Assembly: GCA_964016885.1 (NCBI GenBank)
Contig: CAXHJY010000483.1
Coordinates: 1 to 42,694, forward strand
Length of the DNA: 42,694 nucleotides
Reading direction: 5' to 3'
Source of the DNA: Eledone cirrhosa
Lineage: Eukaryota
Below the pieces are notes generated by a model that saw nothing but the letters and a program-made list of their open reading frames with translations, was not told the origin of the DNA and did no database searches. A program made the translations under genes and the position numbers. Positions 21,380 through 42,134 of the stretch are shown piece after piece. Positions within the stretch are counted from its first letter, which is position 1, and the number at the start of each line of letters is the position of its first letter.

Positions 21380-22194
21380 CAGGGGTTCTCAAACTGGACG
21401 CTACTGCCCCCGGGGGGCATCGAGAAGCTCCAGGGGTCACTGTGGTCTAAGGGGGTGGGGTGGTAGACATGATATAATAGTATATTTAATATCAAATGAT
21501 ACATATTATATATAAATATAGCGAAATAAAAATATATAATATTTATTTATACATAGTATAGTGTGGAAGTCGGACCTTCGTAAGACCTGAAGATCCATCT
21601 CTTCATTGCTGTAGTGGAGTCTGTGCTACTGTACGGGTCTGAGACTTGGACACTGACCAAGAAACTCACTCAGATAGTGGATGGGTGCTACACGAGAATG
21701 CTGAGGATGGCTCTGAACATTCATCAGTATACACTGAGGATGAATAACTCAGAGCTGTATGGGAGCATCCCAAAAGTCAGCTCAAAAGTGACACAGAGGA
21801 GACTGAGGTTAGCTGGACATGCTCACCGACATCTAGAGTTGACACTGGACTCAGTGCTCCTGTGGGAGCTCCTGCATGGACACACTGGAAGAAGGAATCT
21901 TAGGGTTAACATATGTTGATGCCCTAAGGACAGACACTGGTCTGTTGGAGACGCAGGACATGGCAGTGATAATGAGGGACAGAGACCGCTGGAGAGAACT
22001 CGTCCATGGATCTCGGGAATTTTACCCGCCCTAGATATATATATATATATAAATTAACGATTTTATTTATTATATATTATTTACAATTTGTGTATAGGTA
22101 GGTCTGTCTGGAAATAGGGTGGGGGGTGGGAGGAGGCAGAGAAATTACATGACCATGAGGGGAGCAGAGGCCCCAAAAGATTTGAAGACCTCTG
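21380..22194. mobile_element. hAT-like MITE carrying a nested RTE fragment
   Basis: Imperfect TIRs CAGGGGTTCTCAAA / TTTGAAGACCTCTG; degenerate 8-bp TSD CCTTATAT / TCTTATAC. Confidence 0.7.
21580..22034 (+). mobile_element. RTE-clade LINE 3' fragment, 5'-truncated
   Basis: LLYGSETW, RRLRLAGH and DRDRWR motifs; ends in (TA)n; nested in a hAT-like MITE. Confidence 0.9.
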
Positions 22195-22454
22195 TCTTAT
22201 ACTAACACCAATAACTACATTACATATTTAATTAAGATACCAACACATAAATTTGTAACTGAAAAATAAAGTATTAAAACTTAAATTTTTTTTAAAGTAA
22301 ACATTGTATTTTTTATTATCGTAATTCGAATTAATTTTTTGAAATAAAATAACATTACAAATGCATAAATAACATTATCAAGTTAAGAAGACTTAGGTGT
22401 GTGTGTATGTATATATATATATATATATATATATACAGTATATATATATATATA

Positions 22455-22613
22455 TAGGGCGGGTACAATTCCCGAGATCCATGGACGAGTTCTCTCCAGC
22501 GGTCTCTGTCCCTCATCATCGCTGCCATGTCCTGCATCTCCAAGAGACCAGTGTCTGTCCTTAGGGCATCAAGATATGGTAACCTAGGTCTTCCTCTTCC
22601 AGTGTGTCCATGC
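22455..22613 (-). mobile_element. Short 3' end of the same RTE family
   Basis: HGHTGRGRPRLPYLDALRTD...ELYPP followed by (TA)n. Confidence 0.88.
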
Positions 22614-28510: not shown

Positions 28511-30112
28511 ATGGTAATGGCTAATTATTCAACCAGCAACAACAACAATAACAATAATAAGTACAAACCAAGTGATGTGAATTACAAACAAGAGGACAAT
28601 ACTCTTCCTCCAATTAATGGGAAGACATTCGAGGTTTCTAACCATCGACTGGCCATGGCTGAAGAAGAGGCTACCATTCTTTCCCGCTACCTCACAACCA
28701 TGATCTCGGGCAACGCTGACATGGACAACAACAACACGAGTGTCTCTGACATGACCTCGGTCCTTCAAGACTATGACATCCAAGATCTTGATTACACGAG
28801 CAGTTCGGATCTGTCATCATGCTCCACCAAAACCAAACAGTTTTCACGCTACAATGAAGAGAATCTAGAGCTGTCTGCACGCCTTAACAAAGCCGAACAG
28901 ACAGTGAACACTTTAAAGGAGGCCTTGAACTTTCTTCAGGGTGGAGACAGTGAAGATGCTAAATTTAATGAAGTGTTAAATGAAGCCCGAAAATCCCAGG
29001 AATTTGCCAGGGTCAATGAAGGGTTAAATGAACCCCAGAACTTTGTCAGAATGAATGAGGAGTCACAAGAATTTATCAGAATAAAGGAAGCATTAAATGA
29101 TCCCAGGAAATTCCAAGATGTTGTTAGGTTCAACGAAGTGTTAAATCGATCCCAGAAATTACAGAAATCTGTGAGGGTCAATGAAGTACTGAAAGGGCCC
29201 CAAAAGCTACAGGATGCTGTTAGGATCAACAACGAAGCACTGAATGGGCCCCAGACATTGCAGGATTCTGTTAGGCTCAATGAAGCATTGAATGAGTCTA
29301 AAATGTTTCAGGATGCAGTTAGGGCCAACAACGAAGCACTGAATGGACCCCAGAAGTTACAGGATGCTGTTAGGGTCAACGACGAAGCCCTGAATGGACC
29401 CCAGAGGTTACAGGATGCAGTTAGGGTCAACAATGAGGCCCTGAATGGACCCCAGATGTTACATGACACAATTAGGGTCAACAACGAGGCCCTGAATGGA
29501 CCCCAGATGTTACATGACGCAGTTAGGGTCAACAACGAAGCCCTGAATGGACCCCAGATGTTACATGACGCAGTTAGGGTCAACAACGAAGCCCTGAATG
29601 AACCCCTGATGTTACATGACGCAGTTAGGGTCAACCATGAAGCTCTGAATGGACCCCAAAAGTTACACAATGCTATTTGGGTCAACAACGAGGCCATGAA
29701 TGGACCCCAGAGGTTACACAATGCTGTTAGGGTCAATGAGGCCCTGGATGAACCCCAGAGCTTACAGGATGCAGTTAGGGTCAACAACGAGGCCTTGAAT
29801 GGACCCCAGAGGTTACAGGATGAAGTTAGGGTCAACAACGAGGCCCTGAATGGACTCCAGAGGTTACACAATGCTGTTAGGGTCAACGAGGCCCTGGATG
29901 GACCCCAGAGGTTACAGGATGCAGTTAGGGTCAACAATGAGGCCCTTAATGGACCCCAGAGGTTACAGGGTGCTGTCAGTATTGGTCAGCTTCAGCATGA
30001 TGAATTGATCTGTCTCCGACAAGAACTAAAACTAGAACGGGAGGCCAAGACCAGGGCACAAGACGAAATAAGGATTCTCAGAGAGTCTTTATGCAAGACA
30101 TTCCAATTGCAG
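28511..30112 (+). CDS. CCDC150: Coiled-coil domain protein, CCDC150-like; first visible coding exon, with internal tandem repeat block
   Basis: Polypyrimidine tract and TAG acceptor at 28497; ATG at 28511; 534 open codons to a CAG|GTAATT donor (phase 0). Segments TFEVSNHRLAMAEEEATIL, ELSARLNKAEQTVNTLKEALNFLQ and LRQELKLEREAKTRAQDEIRILRESL match, in order, my recollection of vertebrate CCDC150 (TFTVLQQRMRIVEEQ, LVNRMCRLESLMQSLK, LRQQL..KAQDEVQRL). The symbol is from memory, not a search. An upstream exon is likely. Confidence 0.75.
28961..29977 (+). repeat. Coding minisatellite, 48/51-bp unit (RVNNEALNGPQxLxDAV), about 21 units
   Basis: Unit GTTAGGGTCAACAACGAAGCCCTGAATGGACCCCAGATGTTACATGACGCA; all length variants preserve the frame; no stops. 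Confidence 0.95.
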
Positions 30113-32497: not shown

Positions 32498-32683
32498 GTC
32501 GACACCAACGACAAAGCCACCACATTGGAGGCAGAGAAGGAGAATTTGGCGGAGAATCTGTCAAAGATAGAGAAGGAACTGATTGAGGAACGGAACACTC
32601 ATCAAAACCTGGAACACTCCCATATTTCATTGTTGACCAAGATCGGACAGTTAAAGACATTGGTTGACTCTGAGCAGGAGGGG
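32498..32683 (+). CDS. CCDC150: CCDC150-like, second visible exon (VDTNDKATTLEAEK...LVDSEQEG)
   Basis: CAG acceptor at 32495-32497; 186 bp, phase 0 to 0, in frame with the previous exon; GGG|GTGAGT donor; heptad-rich; EERNTHQNLEHSHISLLTKIGQL resembles recalled CCDC150 [23 protein letters not shown]. Confidence 0.8.
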
Positions 32684-32759
32684 GTGAGTGTTGGATCTAA
32701 TGTTCACACACACACATATCCCTTCCATATACTGTACCGTGTTGTTATTTCTGTTTACC

Positions 32760-32813
<54 letters not shown>

Positions 32814-32884
32814 CCCTTCCATATACTGTACCAATTGTGTTGTTATTTCTGTTTACCTTTTACATACATATATATATATATGTC

Positions 32885-33135
32885 GTGTAGGTGTCACAAC
32901 AAAAAAAACACACAGTCCACGCTGTAATGTGGCCGTGTAGGTAACACGGTAAAAACCTCCCAGACCCACACTGTAAACGTGATTGGTGTTAGGAAGGGCA
33001 TCCAGCCGTAGAAAACCTGCCAGACAGTCCTATACGAGCGAGACATGGTCACCCGACCAATCTTGCCTCCAGTAGGACAATTCCCGTCTAAACCCATGCT
33101 AGCGTGGAAGATAGATGTTAAACGATGATGATGAT
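32885..33135 (+). mobile_element. Short (GAT)n-tailed retroposon, probably RTE-mobilised (copies at 36643-36891 +, 35471-35620 -, 10330-10470 -, 10975-11076 +)
   Basis: Shared TTAGGAAGGGCATCCAGCC...CCCATGCTAGCGTGGAA..GACGTTAAACGATGATGAT; the tail resembles that of the RTE at 36181. Confidence 0.8.
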
Positions 33136-33171
33136 ACTGTACCGATTGCGTTGTTATTTCTGTTTACCTTT

Positions 33172-33231
<60 letters not shown>

Positions 33232-33505
33232 CATTCATTTCATTTATTGATTTATTGATAATTTATCTGAGTGTCCTGAATCTTCCATATCGAAATTTTT
33301 CGGTTATTTGGTTGATTGTAGACATATTCTACATGTGACGGTATTTTAACGATAGTTATAGCTCTGATTTATTTGAATTATGGAGCCCTCTGCCGCTCAT
33401 CTCGAATTTTGTTTATCGTGAACTCGTGCGCCGATTTTTCGATACTCGATCTCGAATTTTGTTTATCGTGAACTCGTGCGCCGATTTTTCGATACTCGAT
33501 CATTC

Positions 33506-33540
<35 letters not shown>

Positions 33541-33566
33541 TAGAAGTGAAAGATCACTAATTTTTC

Positions 33567-33648
33567 AACAACTACTGAGGAGCAGAGAAACGTGAAAACT
33601 TCACTTAATAAGTCGTTGCGAAACAGTCTCCAACACTGTCTAGTTGTT
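33567..33648 (+). ncRNA. Type I hammerhead ribozyme, canonical GUC site, intronic sense strand
   Basis: AACAACTA-CTGAGGA-GCAG...TTGC-GAAA-CAGT ctccaac ACTG-TC-TAGTTGTT: 8-bp stem I, G-C closing stem II, 5-bp stem III. Cleavage predicted after C33640. Confidence 0.88.
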
Positions 33649-33922
33649 ACCAGGCATTTTTGCCCAATATAGGTCTGTTATTTTTTTTTATTTTTCTTAA
33701 TTTAATATTTAAAGTTAAGGATAACAAACTATATTGCTGTAGTTAGTATTTTCACCCTAGCAAATTTTGGTCCTTACGATTCGAACACATGTATGTTTTT
33801 ATATTAGAGTTCATCTCTCTTGTTTATTCAATTATATTGTACGCCTCGGAAAAGCTTTTTTCTTAGAGCTATTTAATTGTAAGAGACTACTCTGAGTTCT
33901 TAACTCAATATATATATATATA

Positions 33923-34315
33923 TATATTAATAAGAGGAATTCCAACTTTGTCTGATTTACTCGTTTTATTTACAATCCTTTAAAATATATAATGGTATTA
34001 TAATGAAATAGTATGATAGAATATTAAATTCTAAGTGTTAATTGAACAAGTACTTTCATGCTTTCGCAATCTTCAGGTTCATAATATGTGGTGACAGTCA
34101 AGTTTGCAATTTTCAACACAGTTGAAAATTGCAAACTTGACTGTCACCACATATTATGAACCTGAAGATTGCGAAAGCATGAAAGTACTTGTTCAATTAA
34201 CACTTAGAATTTAATATTCTATCATACTATTTCATTATAATACCATTATATATTTTAAAGGATTGTAAATAAAACGAGTAAATCAGACAAAGTTGGAATT
34301 CCTCTTATTAATATA
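33923..34315. mobile_element. Palindromic PLE-end element (about 195-bp arms, 3-nt spacer) with two outward-facing hammerheads
   Basis: Arms appear to be exact reverse complements about ACA at 34118-34120; microsatellite flanks. Confidence 0.9.
34157..34195 (+). ncRNA. Minimal hammerhead (mirror copy at 34043-34081, - strand)
   Basis: TGAAC-CTGAAGA-tTGC gaaa GCAt-GAAA-GTAC-TT-GTTCA; the palindromic stem III is typical of dimer-acting PLE hammerheads. Confidence 0.8.
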
Positions 34316-34365
34316 ATCTTCTATACACAATCATACACACCCGTGTATATTTACCTATCTATATC

Positions 34366-34405
<40 letters not shown>

Positions 34406-34527
34406 ACAAAGGAATTGTGGTAAGGAACCAGATGGACCATAACGCACCAGAGTACTCAATACTTAGGGTAGTAGAGTGGGAAATAGGAAAAGGTATGACC
34501 CCGTCGGGGTCATACCTTTCCCTATAA

Positions 34528-34564
<37 letters not shown>

Positions 34565-34565
<1 letters not shown>

Positions 34566-34945
34566 ACGCTTATGTGTACCTCTCAAAATTCGTTGGATTT
34601 TCTAATTGGATTTTCACCCTGAAACTGGATACCAACCCGGAGTACTCCTGAACTTCCACCAGGAAATCTTTTGTATCATTGAAATTTTCTTTGCTTCTTG
34701 CATTTAAATATTCCACGACTCTCTACCACTTTTCCTCTACTACAATCTTCTTACACCTCCTTCTTCTTCTCACCCATCTATTTTCCCCTCCCACCCTAGT
34801 ACCTTCAATATGCCCAATCTCAAACATTTTCTATTCCAACCCGCCCGTCCCTTCAATCTATCTTATTTCTCATTCTTTCTTCTGATGAAGGACTAGCGTC
34901 CAAAACGTTAAGACCCTCTTCCTGCTATATCAAGCATTAACCTAA
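34565..34945 (+). mobile_element. PLE 3' remnant with degenerate hammerhead at 34877-34913
   Basis: A NWIFTLK stretch resembles the WIxxLxT..P.GLN end of PLE endonucleases; a pyrimidine-rich UTR follows; then TCTT-CTGATGA-aGGAC tagc GTCC-AAAA-CG-TT-AAGA, in which GAAA has become AAAA. Confidence 0.55.
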
Positions 34946-35109
34946 TATATTCCTTCCATATACTGTACTGATTGTGTTGTTATTTCTGTTTAGCTTTTAC
35001 ATACATATATATAAGATATATATATATATATATATATATATGTTAGGTAATTCCGAAGGAAAAGCAAAGGAAAAAGAGTGCTCTATGTATAGAACAGAGC
35101 TATTTAATT

Positions 35110-35336
35110 AGAAAGTGAACAACAAAAAATATAACTACTCCATTACCAAAGGTTTCTGGATCCCAGACAATAATAATATACGTCTGGATCGGTCATCAGA
35201 CAGGGATGTTATGAATAAAAAATATTTTTATCCATAACATCCCTGTCTGATGACAGATCCTGACGTATATTATTATTGTCTGAGATCCAGAAACCTTTGG
35301 TAATGGAGTAGTTATATATTTTGTTGTTCACTTTCT
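35110..35336. mobile_element. Palindromic PLE-end element (about 110-bp arms) with hammerhead motifs at 35140-35203 (-) and 35243-35306 (+)
   Basis: Inverted arms with a few mismatches; CTGT-CTGATGA-long stem II-GAAA-CC ttt GG-TA-ATGG. The left arm extends about 70 bp further to (TA)n. Confidence 0.8.
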
Positions 35337-35577
35337 GAAAAAAAAAAAATTTATATATACACACTCATATGAACATGTATACATCCACACATATATACAA
35401 ACACACACACATATATATAGAGATATGCATAGACACATACACACAGACACACACACATATATGTATATATATCATCATTATCGTTTAATGTTCATCTGCC
35501 ACACTAGCATGGGTTGGACAGGATTATCCCACGTCTGGCTGGTTTTCTACAGCTGGATGTCCTTCATAACACCAACC

Positions 35578-36022
35578 ACATTTACAGTGTGGACTGGGAG
35601 CCTTTTTACCATGTCACCTGCATGATCACTTTACAGTGTGGCTTGGGTGCTTTTTGCTGAGACACCTACACGACCACTTTACAGTGTGGACTAGGTGCTT
35701 TTTGTTGTGACACCTACACGACCACTTTACAGTGTGGACTGGGTGCTTTTTGTTGTGACACCTACACGACCATTTTACAGTGTGGACTGGGTGCTTTTTG
35801 TTGTGACACCTACACGACCATTTTACAGTGTGGACTAGGTGCTTTTTGTTGTGACACCTACACGATCACTTTACAGTGTGGCCTGGGTGCTTTTTGTTGT
35901 GACACCTACATGACCACTTTACAGAGTGGCCTGGGTGCTTTTTGTTGTGACACCTACACCACCACTTTACAGTGTGGACTGGGTGCTTTTTGTTGTGACA
36001 CCTACACCACCACTTTACAGTG
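35578..36022. repeat. 48-bp minisatellite, about 9 copies, derived from the retroposon 5' part
   Basis: TTTACAGTGTGGACTGGGTGCTTTTTGTTGTGACACCTACACGACCAC, the reverse complement of the motif at 32885-32975. Confidence 0.93.
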
Positions 36023-36180
36023 TAGATGTTCTGTGGTTCCAACATAACTTTACACACATATATACATACCCACATACACACACAAGTGCACTAGAAAGGT
36101 TGTTATATTTGACACAACTAAAGAGTCCTCTCAACACTTTGTTTGACAAGATTTCTACAGCTGGACGCCCTTCCTATCAT

Positions 36181-36600
36181 CCATCATCATCATCATTTTA
36201 CGTCCGCTTTTCACTGCTTGCAAGGGTGGGACGGGTCTTCTTCGGCACAGCATCTCACCACTCATTACGGTCCTTCGTCATCTCCTCCGTGAGCTTCAGC
36301 GATCTAAGGTCAGCTCTCACCACCTCCGCCCATGTTTTTCGTGGTCTTCCTCTACTACGTCTTCCTTCTACTGGGATTTCTTGGCACTTCTTTACCCAGC
36401 ATTCATCCTCAATGCACATTACATGTCCATATCATCTCAGTCTTCTCTCCCTCATACCACAACTTATCCATCTTAAACACAGTTTCTCTCTCAACTCATC
36501 TATGCTTGGTCGTTCACGCACATTGATATTGCACATCCAATGGAGCATGCTTGCTTCATTTCTCTCCAGCCGTCACATAGCCTCTGTAGTTGCTGCCCAT
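36181..36600 (-). mobile_element. RTE-clade LINE 3' fragment, second family
   Basis: Reverse translation: RLERNEASMLHWMC...RERRLR*YGHV...VEGRRSRGRPRKTWAEVVRADL...DRNEW; (GAT)n tail. Confidence 0.88.
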
Positions 36601-36962
36601 ATTTATAAAATACATCAACATCCAGTCCAAACTAATGAGGTTGTGTAGGTGTCACGACAAAAAAAACTTACAGTCCACGCTGTAATGTGGCCGTGTAGGT
36701 AACACAGTAAAAAGCTGCCAGTCCACACTGTAAATGTGGTTGGTGTTAAGAAGGGCATCCAGCCATGGAAAACCTGCCAGTTAGTCCTATACGAGCGAGA
36801 CATGGTCACCCAACCAATCTTGCTTCAAGTGGGACAATTCCCGTCTAACCCATGCTAGCGTGGAAGATAGACGTTAAACGATGATGATGATTTGCTATTT
36901 CAGTTGTTTATGATATAAGTTATAAGGAGGTTAACTGGTTTGTTTGTCTGTTCAATCCCCAG

Positions 36963-37086
36963 TTGAAAGATTTAAGTGCAGCCCACAAAAAACAACAGCT
37001 AGTTATTGCCAAATGGCGAAACAAACTGAAGGATGAACGCAAACTAAGAATTAAAATAGAGAGAAACTACCAACAACTTCTCAAAG
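36963..37086 (+). CDS. CCDC150: CCDC150-like, third visible exon (LKDLSAAHKKQQ...NYQQLLK)
   Basis: CCCCAG acceptor ending at 36962; phase 0 start is compatible with the previous exon; coiled-coil sequence; AAG|GTGAGG donor. The gene probably continues beyond the window. Confidence 0.75.
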
Positions 37087-37439: not shown

Positions 37440-38143
37440 ATATAATAAATAACAAAGAACGCCTATAGCATATGCATATCTTTACTTGCTAACATTGTTT
37501 CATCCGCACTATAAGTGGGACTCATCAGAGCATAAAGGTTAATTACATACCACACAAGCAATAACAAATCCAAGACATTGAAGAATGAAAAATAATAGAA
37601 GATAAAGGATATTAAGGAAGTAAAAGTAAAAATAAAAATAAAAATAAAAATAAAAATAAAAATAAAAATAAAAATAAAAATAAAAATAATAAAATAAACA
37701 ATGAAAAATAAGGGGTGCTATCAGTCACAGTTGGGCGGGGTGCTGTCAACATATAGTTACATACAAGCATACACATGGATAAGAGAACAGACAAGAGTAG
37801 ATAAGATAGATAGGATTAGGTAAGAGTAGGTAAAAAATAGGTGAAAAACAGACTTATAATATATATAAGAAAATATAAAAAAATATAACAAACATACATA
37901 TAAAATATAAAATATACAGATAATAGTGATACAGGGTAAGGAATGAAATAAAATAATATAAAATTAAAATTAAAATTATATAAAATAGAACATAATATAA
38001 TATAATCATAAAATAAGATAAAATAAGGTAAACTAAAATAAAATAAAATAGACTAAAGTAAAATAATATAATATAAGATATAATTAAATGTAATTAAATA
38101 AATAAATAAATAAATAGAATTAAATAAATAAATAAAATTAAAA

Positions 38144-38179
<36 letters not shown>

Positions 38180-38800
38180 GTAAATAAATAAATAAATAAA
38201 TAAATAAATGAAATTAAATAAATAAATAAATAAAATTAAATAAAATGAAAAGAAATAAAATAAAATAAAATAAAGTAAATTGAGATAAGATATATATTTT
38301 TTTAGAGTATATCTCTTGAATACATCAGGGGCCCACGAAGGCACTAAGTGTCACAGTTATCTGTATCACTTGACCATTTTTTTAGAATATATTTCTTGAA
38401 AATATCAGGGGCCCACGAAGGCACTAAGTGTCACAGTCACCAGTATCACTTGACCATTGCAAGGCAATGGAGGCGTCCCAGGTTGGGCAGTCCAACTGAG
38501 ACTGCCCAACCTAGGACGCCTCCATTGCCTTGCAATGGTCAAGTGATACTGGTGACTGTGACACTTAGTGCCTTCGTGGGCCCCTGATATTTTCAAGAAA
38601 TATATTCTAAAAAAATGGTCAAGTGATACAGATAACTGTGACACTTAGTGCCTTCGTGGGCCCCTGATGTATTCAAGAGATATACTCTAAAAAAATATAT
38701 ATCTTATCTCAATTTACTTTATTTTATTTTATTTTATTTCTTTTCATTTTATTTAATTTTATTTATTTATTTATTTAATTTCATTTATTTATTTATTTAC

Positions 38801-38836
<36 letters not shown>

Positions 38837-39540
38837 TTTTAATTTTAATTTTATTTATTTATTTAATTCTATTTATTTATTTATTTATTTAATTACATTT
38901 AATTATATCTTATATTATATTATTTTACTTTAGTCTATTTTATTTTATTTTAGTTTACCTTATTTTATCTTATTTTATGATTATATTATATTATGTTCTA
39001 TTTTATATAATTTTAATTTTAATTTTATATTATTTTATTTCATTCCTTACCCTGTATCACTATTATCTGTATATTTTATATTTTATATGTATGTTTGTTA
39101 TATTTTTTTATATTTTCTTATATATATTATAAGTCTGTTTTTCGCCTATGTTTTACCTACTCTTACCTAATCCTATCTATCTTATCTACTCTTGTCTGTT
39201 CTCTTATCCATGTGTATGCTTGTATGTAACTATATGTTGACAGCACCCCGCCCAACTGTGACTGATAGCACCCCTTATTTTTCATTGTTTATTTTATTAT
39301 TTTTATTTTTATTTTTATTTTTATTTTTATTTTTATTTTTATTTTTATTTTTATTTTTACTTTTACTTCCTTAATATCCTTTATCTTCTATTATTTTTCA
39401 TTCTTCAATGTCTTGGATTTGTTATTGCTTGTGTGGTATGTAATTAACCTTTATGCTCTGATGAGTCCCACTTATAGTGCGGATGAAACAATGTTAGCAA
39501 GTAAAGATATGCATATGCTATAGGCGTTCTTTGTTATTTA

Positions 39541-39546
<6 letters not shown>
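37440..39546. mobile_element. 2.1-kb near-perfect palindrome (PLE end plus inverted copy) with hammerheads near both outer ends
   Basis: Arms of about 1050 bp around spacer CAACTGA (38493-38499); identical mirror ORFs in the ORF track; long (TA)n flanks; left-only extension at 37348-37439. Confidence 0.92.
39449..39506 (+). ncRNA. Type I hammerhead (mirror copy at 37480-37537, - strand)
   Basis: CTTTATGCT-CTGATGA-GTCC CACT tat AGTG c GGAT-GAAA-C aat G-TT-AGCA ag TAAAG. Confidence 0.8.
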
Positions 39547-41772: not shown

Positions 41773-42134
41773 ATATATAAGATCAAAAGATGGTTAAAGG
41801 AGTTCCATGTATTTTATTATGCGCATTTCAAAAAACAAACATCATCATGCAATAATATTTGTGTTTTTCATCAGATAAAACAGGAGGGGACATGATATGA
41901 AGGCTAAAAAAACACTTGTGGATAGTGCAGTTTTAAATCAACATATATATTGTATGTATATATGTTGATTTAAAAACTGCACTATCCACAAGTGTTTTTT
42001 TAGCCTTCATATCATGTCCTCCTGTTTTTATCTGATGAAAAACACAAATATTATTGCATGATGATGTTTGTTTTTTGAAATGCGCATAATAAAATACATG
42101 GAACTCCCTTTAACCATCTTTTGATCTTATATAT
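41773..42134. mobile_element. Palindromic PLE-end element (about 175-bp arms) with two outward-facing hammerheads
   Basis: Inverted arms around a short spacer near 41950-41956; the left arm extends about 90 bp to (TA)n. Confidence 0.88.
42026..42094 (+). ncRNA. Type I hammerhead (mirror copy at 41812-41880, - strand)
   Basis: TTTTAT-CTGATGA-AAAA..CAAATA...TGTTTG TTTT..-GAAA-TGCGCA-TA-ATAAAA; palindromic stem III. Confidence 0.8.

Follow-up and report, generated by a model that had tools for sequence, protein, structure and literature searches.

A type I hammerhead motif in an intron of Eledone cirrhosa is part of a dispersed 518-bp non-coding repeat

The host intron and its hammerhead motif

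We analyzed a contig of Eledone cirrhosa, 42,694 nucleotides in length (the whole stretch is called the window below), which carries a hammerhead motif on the sense strand of an intron (Table 1). The exons on both sides of the intron are in frame and match consecutive stretches of the Octopus protein P0001 (residues 210-268 and 271-310), and the intron is therefore real. The predicted cut of the hammerhead is located 957 nt after the donor GT (32684) and 3322 nt before the acceptor, in agreement with the sense-strand intronic position about 960 nt after the donor given in the original prediction. The host is an octopod coiled-coil gene. Its homologs are Octopus proteins named "hypothetical" or "paramyosin isoform X2", with none longer found, and the host protein has no Pfam match above the cut-off. 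The name "CCDC150-like", proposed earlier for this gene, could not be confirmed, as the searches gave neither family hits nor a named CCDC150 homolog; the gene may resemble CCDC150. The host exon is found only on the 42.7-kb window contig, and no second genomic copy, which was sought for an empty insertion site, is present in the assembly. A large upstream exon contains, in frame, a 51-bp tandem repeat of ~15 copies (29189-29976), which has no counterpart in the Octopus homologs P0001-P0003.

Table 1 Features of the host intron, the hammerhead motif and the adjoining elements (window coordinates)
Feature	Position	Strand	Remarks
Upstream host exon	32498..32683	+	62 codons; single copy in assembly; 66% identical to P0001 210-268
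Host intron	32684..36962	+	GT-AG, 4279 nt, phase 0
Downstream host exon	36963..37086	+	63% identical to P0001 271-310
(TA)n tract, 5' junction of repeat copy	33509..33537
5'-truncated copy of 518-bp non-coding repeat, unit positions 139-518	33534..33915	+	Carries the hammerhead
Type I hammerhead motif	33567..33648	+	Predicted cut 33640/33641 after GUC; from sequence and descriptor scan
Hammerhead stem I, 5' strand	33567..33574	+	Pairs with 33641-33648, 8 bp
Hammerhead core CUGAGGA	33575..33581	+
Hammerhead stem II, 3-4 bp	33582..33619	+	Closed by G10.1-C11.1 (33582/33619); long bulged extension with 5-bp hairpin
Hammerhead GAAA core, 5-bp stem III with 7-nt loop, and C17	33620..33640	+
78-nt tail between the short 3' end (unit 440 = 33837) and the long 3' end (unit 518) of the family	33838..33915	+
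(TA)n tract, 3' junction	33908..33926		Common to the repeat copy and the adjoining element
Inverted pair of Penelope-like element 3' ends	33923..34365		195-nt arms, tail on right arm only; separate insertion
Minimal hammerhead, palindromic AGUACU stem III, right arm of Penelope-like element	34157..34195	+	Mirror on minus, core starts 34076

The motif contains the type I elements: a core of the form CUGANGA, the GAAA stretch (33620-33623), a UH triplet, and three helices, of which helix I is open. Stem III is formed in the sequence by 33623-33627 and 33635-33639. The perfect 8-bp stem I, the intact core, the G-C closing pair, and the stem III with a 7-nt loop and a GUC site that had been described for this motif are all present (Table 1). 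A descriptor scan finds no other motif in the window whose stems reach 8, 3, and 5 bp. A chance origin is ruled out by the absence of any motif of this quality in 300 shuffles (block-wise dinucleotide shuffling of the whole window, both strands), and the type I hammerhead is real. The description "canonical-looking", on the other hand, does not hold. Canonical fast metazoan type I hammerheads have a helix I of 6 bp, a helix II of 4 bp, and conserved loop-loop contacts, whereas here helix I is an unbroken 8 bp, stem II leads after 3-4 bp into a bulged extension of ~30 nt in place of a terminal loop 2 at 4 bp, and a loop 1/loop 2 contact is not recognisable. Rfam gives nothing at the gathering score in the whole window, and around the motif no hammerhead model at E<=10.

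Other hammerhead-like motifs and repeats were observed in the window. A large inverted repeat at 37440-39546, with 709-nt arms that are 100% identical, holds a short type I hammerhead at 39454-39499 (plus strand) and 37487-37532 (minus strand), with stems I and II of 4 bp and a stem III of 2 bp. Each copy faces its antisense arm, and this hammerhead is nearer the canonical form than the motif at 33567-33648. An inverted pair of hammerhead-like motifs, at 41810-41882 (minus) and 42026-42094 (plus), lies beside a 2-kb (TA)n-rich tract. Within the host intron, a palindrome at 35103-35343 has 119-nt arms, each with CUGAUGA and a downstream GAAAC, for which the descriptor scan finds no standard hammerhead pairing; related pieces are located at 864-923, 2477, and 4429, and the 14-mer just left of 35113 is common to the tail of the 518-bp unit described below. 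A piece of a further repeat (34817-35013) contains a CUGAUGA core at 34882, with GAAA altered in the window copy, and a 91% match to it adjoins a 518-bp unit at locus L011. At 7173-7564, the window contains a short palindrome that resembles a hairpin and has open frames on either strand, and LINE-like reverse transcriptase fragments lie at about 3890-4300 and 21580-22590.

A 518-bp repeat family and its insertion architecture

The hammerhead belongs to a dispersed repeat, which was missed in the original prediction. We defined the repeat unit by mapping loci on a natural copy (L024:1357-1874); it is 518 bp long with 34% GC, contains no open reading frame, and has its predicted cut after position 246. 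In a search of the genome itself, which gave 698 first-look candidates, all 40 scored candidates, including the window, share 94-100% identity over 161 nt. The 33-nt stretch downstream of the cut has 60 exact genomic matches and at least 113 at 0-1 mismatch, on many contigs. The window copy, a truncated monomer, differs from the family majority at 10 positions over 380 nt (~97% identical), one of which is a common polymorphism inside the hammerhead. Its hammerhead 82-mer thus shows no change beyond the family polymorphism, versus 9 changes elsewhere in the copy; this is expected by chance at ~2.6% divergence and is also compatible with selection. The identical 82-mer is found at 4 other loci among the 71 examined. 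We note that loci were sampled by similarity to the window copy, so older copies are under-counted in these figures. In three sequencing runs of one sample, the family is present as many short contigs, whose loose ends go into (TA)n at 33837; none of them spans the window stretch.

The original prediction stressed that the motif is not shielded by an antisense arm nearby. This is correct, the best other matches of the 82-mer in the window being 11-14 nt. An antisense arm accompanies 15 of 96 complete hammerhead copies in the family and is absent from the other 81, so the unshielded state is the family norm.

The insertion architecture was analyzed in 99 distinct loci, after removal of 9 that repeat a place or a 10-kb duplicate. 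The 3' ends of the copies are fixed at unit position 440 or 518 and are followed by (TA)n, and the 5' ends are scattered. A head-to-tail junction from 518 to 1 is found in 36 of the 99 loci. Inversions are present in 55 loci: 41 have one short (440) and one long (518) end, 14 are irregular, and none has two short or two long ends. The 44 loci without inversion have a short end in 21 cases, a long end in 19, and otherwise in 4. Two complete hammerheads occur in 6 of 71 loci, some of them inverted, with the two on the same strand in L024, L058, and L100. Only partial tandems were seen, and no long tandem arrays of the unit. In the copies at L059 and L119, stem III is spanned by small internal deletions flanked by short direct repeats, as expected from a reverse transcriptase that skips a hairpin.

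The positions of the 5' ends were compared with the cut site. Piece starts do not pile up at the cut, with none among the first 30 exact matches and 1 of 60. In a larger set, 6 of 146 piece starts lie at unit 244-250, versus ~2 expected. We chose this range with the data already at hand, and the first letters of the site are TA, which offers microhomology to the target, so we do not count the excess as established. It may be a weak, after-the-fact hint of templates that start at the cut.

The element that adjoins the window copy is of a different family. The perfect palindrome at 33923-34315 was considered as a possible assembly artefact, a reading rejected because the palindrome, with one of its arms tailed, is found again at many loci. 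Copies of this young family are 96-99% identical, and a near-complete copy at L082 (5087-8958, with an inverted arm of 1325 nt) shows that the palindrome sequence derives from the 3' end of an element that has a frame of 530 residues. This frame matches GIY-YIG above the curated cut-off (E 2.4e-6) and RVT_1 just under it (E 1.9e-6), and it contains a C-x4-C-x2-C linker of the kind given for Neptune in the description of Penelope-like elements by Craig et al. (PMC8557442). The supplement of that work lists octopus elements and may name this one. Among 21 loci examined, 14 have both arms detected, and 12 of these combine a short arm with a tail arm. In 2 of the 99 loci (the window and L017), the Penelope-like element and the 518-bp unit are neighbours in a tail-to-tail arrangement, and the near-complete copy at L082 adjoins a 518-bp unit in the same way. 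The unit and the 3' UTR of its neighbour share no homology, the best match being 11 nt; an enzymatic partnership is therefore suggested by the architecture and by an adjacency in only 2 of 99 loci.

The insertion marks themselves are those of a known group. According to Craig et al. 2021 (PMC8557442), Penelope-like elements are characterised by partial tandems and 5' inversions, by a tail restricted to one end, and by a bias to microsatellites, and the 518-bp copies share all these marks, including the (TA)n targets, with endonuclease-positive members of the group. A type I hammerhead in the terminal region is a further similarity (Cervera and de la Pena 2014, PMC4209133). The stem III of the 518-bp hammerhead is long and non-palindromic, as described for fungal and protist Penelope-like hammerheads, whereas the metazoan ones are described as minimal and dimer-acting, a description that fits the hammerhead of the neighbouring element (34157-34195). 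With 78 nt, the tail of the 518-bp unit is longer than the 30-40 nt given for Penelope-like elements.

Given this resemblance, the 518-bp unit could be a terminal repeat (pLTR) that has become detached from an autonomous Penelope-like element yet to be found, with its copies as the 5'-truncated ends of that element. Besides the shared architecture, most Penelope-like copies are reported to be 5'-truncated and their terminal repeats to carry type I hammerheads (PMC4209133; bioRxiv 10.64898/2026.07.22.740005). However, the unit closes on itself, position 518 being followed by position 1 at the head-to-tail junctions, and in the loci whose flanks were inspected, unit position 1 adjoins the end of a unit, an inverted segment, or (TA)n on its upstream side, and no copy extends into coding sequence or an open reading frame. 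We therefore consider a detached pLTR very unlikely. Unlike an autonomous Penelope-like element, the 518-bp unit lacks a reverse transcriptase/GIY-YIG frame, which only the neighbouring family has.

The 518-bp family is most probably an animal non-LTR retrozyme, a known kind of element. Animal non-LTR retrozymes, as described by Cervera and de la Pena 2020 (PMC7229834) and by Li, Clavereau and Pollet 2026 (bioRxiv 10.64898/2026.07.22.740005), are likewise non-coding units with one type I hammerhead, AT-rich, found as head-to-tail copies and dispersed monomers, and co-occurring with Penelope-like elements. A mussel retrozyme family described in PMC7229834 also lacks recognisable loop 1/loop 2 contact nucleotides. 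In Xenopus, ~42-44% of retrozyme copies likewise overlap introns. Unlike the known retrozymes, the copies of the 518-bp unit occur for the most part as scattered partial tandems and inversions within (TA)n, with a long bulged arm II. At 518 bp, the unit exceeds the 170-400 nt that PMC7229834 reports for animal retrozymes and lies within the 51-972 bp range of bioRxiv 10.64898/2026.07.22.740005.

Core decay, predicted folding, and possible cleavage

Inserted copies of the 518-bp repeat decay neutrally. In 82 of the 103 copies that match the 33-mer, the sequence continues through the entire hammerhead, and the core is intact in 42 of these 82. Non-CpG changes affect 34 of 902 core positions and 145 of 4510 in the rest of the motif (Fisher P=0.41), and purifying selection on the cores is not seen. 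The closing pair of stem II is G-C in 67 of the 82 copies, A-U in 7, and different in the other 8. The A-U pair is probably one compensatory event in a source lineage, and it fits selection on the fold in source lineages. The window hammerhead has not been kept apart from its decaying parent element, as it still sits within the 380-nt piece of the repeat.

The motif was expected to fold as a monomer, and the folding models do not bear this out. In the predicted minimum fold, GAGA in arm II pairs with UCUC in arm III. The active hammerhead fold is 1.5 kcal/mol higher and makes up ~3% of the predicted ensemble at 37 °C, and less in the cold. With both flanks added, its share ranges from 0.006% to 2.6%, and with the upstream intron alone it is below 1%. 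We note that these models include neither Mg2+ nor tertiary contacts and that a gap of 1.5 kcal/mol is within their error, so the prediction weakens the case for hammerhead activity and leaves such activity possible.

One alternative concerns a single step in the life of the element and not its identity: the GAGA/UCUC pairing may act as a trap that makes the hammerhead catalytically negligible family-wide, with spread from uncut tandem transcripts. This would be consistent with the active fold not being the predicted minimum at any temperature tried, with the many copies that read through the site, and with the lack of selection on the cores. However, the family-majority motif is fully intact, a subfamily has the compensatory A-U closing pair, the 5' ends show the weak excess near the cut, and the energy gap is small relative to model error. 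We consider negligible catalysis possible but less likely than not.

Cleavage rates of comparable hammerheads give a rough scale for what the intronic copy might do. Two hammerheads without loop contacts are reported to cleave at ~0.1 per min (mussel, PMC7229834) and 0.16 per min (fungal Penelope-like element, PMC4209133). At these rates, and assuming 1.1-3.3 min until the acceptor is transcribed, 10-41% of the molecules in the active fold would be cut before the 3' splice site is transcribed, a fraction that misfolding would lower. Some co-transcriptional cleavage of the pre-mRNA by this hammerhead is physically possible. We predict slow or partial cutting by the intronic copy, and any side effect on the pre-mRNA would be modest at most.

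The original prediction went further and proposed an effect on splicing or expression similar to that of amniote intronic hammerheads. In its strongest form, the mobile-element copy would now cut nascent pre-mRNA enough to alter splicing or output of the host gene and would be kept for it, as an early stage of domestication. The sense orientation in a real intron, the intact core, the stable stem III, an 82-mer without private changes, and the cut fraction calculated above agree with this proposal, and amniote intronic hammerheads are themselves proposed to derive from retroelements (PMC6155905). On the other side, the insertion is recent and comes from a neutrally decaying family, the 4 other loci with identical 82-mers are unrelated, and the active fold is predicted to be rare in isolation and rarer with upstream intron sequence. 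Hammerhead-like motifs are common here, as the same intron contains further ones that stem from different repeats. Exon tethering has been reported to allow splicing of a nascent transcript that is broken (cited in PMC5126111), and splicing may therefore tolerate such a break. Furthermore, 1 of 9 predicted Xenopus retrozymes cleaved in vitro according to bioRxiv 10.64898/2026.07.22.740005. Taken together, we regard domestication of this copy as very unlikely.

The comparison with amniotes leads to the same view. Amniote intronic hammerheads (RECK and others) are described as conserved across species in orthologous introns, among birds, mammals, or reptiles, with their tertiary contacts kept (PMC6155905). 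The window motif is also of type I, inside an intron of a protein-coding gene, and attributable to a retroelement. Unlike the amniote hammerheads, it belongs to a young insertion with many copies and still lies within its element. These points do not support the analogy: the copy is recent, at 10 differences from the majority over 380 nt, and the mobile repeat is young, with no sign of purifying selection on the family cores. A splicing role like that of amniote intronic hammerheads is unlikely. As one of more than 100 near-identical copies of a young non-coding mobile repeat, the intronic hammerhead is probably a passenger and not a gene regulator.

A putative route of mobilisation and its meaning

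We believe, with a probability of about 85%, that the hammerhead is part of a 518-bp non-coding repeat, and that this copy was likely inserted in trans by a Penelope-like enzyme and is likely useless to the host. Source copies in partial tandem would be transcribed into multimers, which the hammerhead would cut into single units that may then circularise. A GIY-YIG endonuclease may nick (TA)n, and a reverse transcriptase would prime at unit 440 or at unit 518, two AU-rich sites of the RNA. Since the template would be ligated or uncut, the enzyme would in most cases pass through the cut site. Where both nicked strands served as primers, inverted copies with one short and one long end would arise. 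The neighbouring Penelope-like element, with its reverse transcriptase and GIY-YIG domains, is a candidate source of the mobilising enzyme.

A more far-reaching combination of these ideas is that the hammerhead is active as a monomer and cuts in vivo, that the copies record both ligated or circular templates (the read-through copies) and cut linear ones (5' ends at the cut), that the Neptune-like neighbour is the donor, and that sense intronic copies measurably lower or reshape host transcripts. We consider this combination as a whole unlikely. If it were true, well over 100 recently scattered cutters would show, while it is under way, the stage that precedes the domestication of intronic hammerheads.

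In its modest form, the finding adds one more copy of a repeat of the animal retrozyme type. A full-text literature search on octopus or cephalopod retrozymes listed only PMC8557442 and no description of such an element, so the 518-bp family may be undescribed in print. The mobilisation of retrozymes by Penelope-like enzymes is an idea that has been proposed and is still unproven, and the rule of one short and one long end and the (TA)n targets, both common to the repeat and to its neighbour with reverse transcriptase and GIY-YIG, are genomic evidence for it. If the intronic copy cut efficiently and changed splicing, it would illustrate a way in which mobile elements could give rise to conserved intronic hammerheads.
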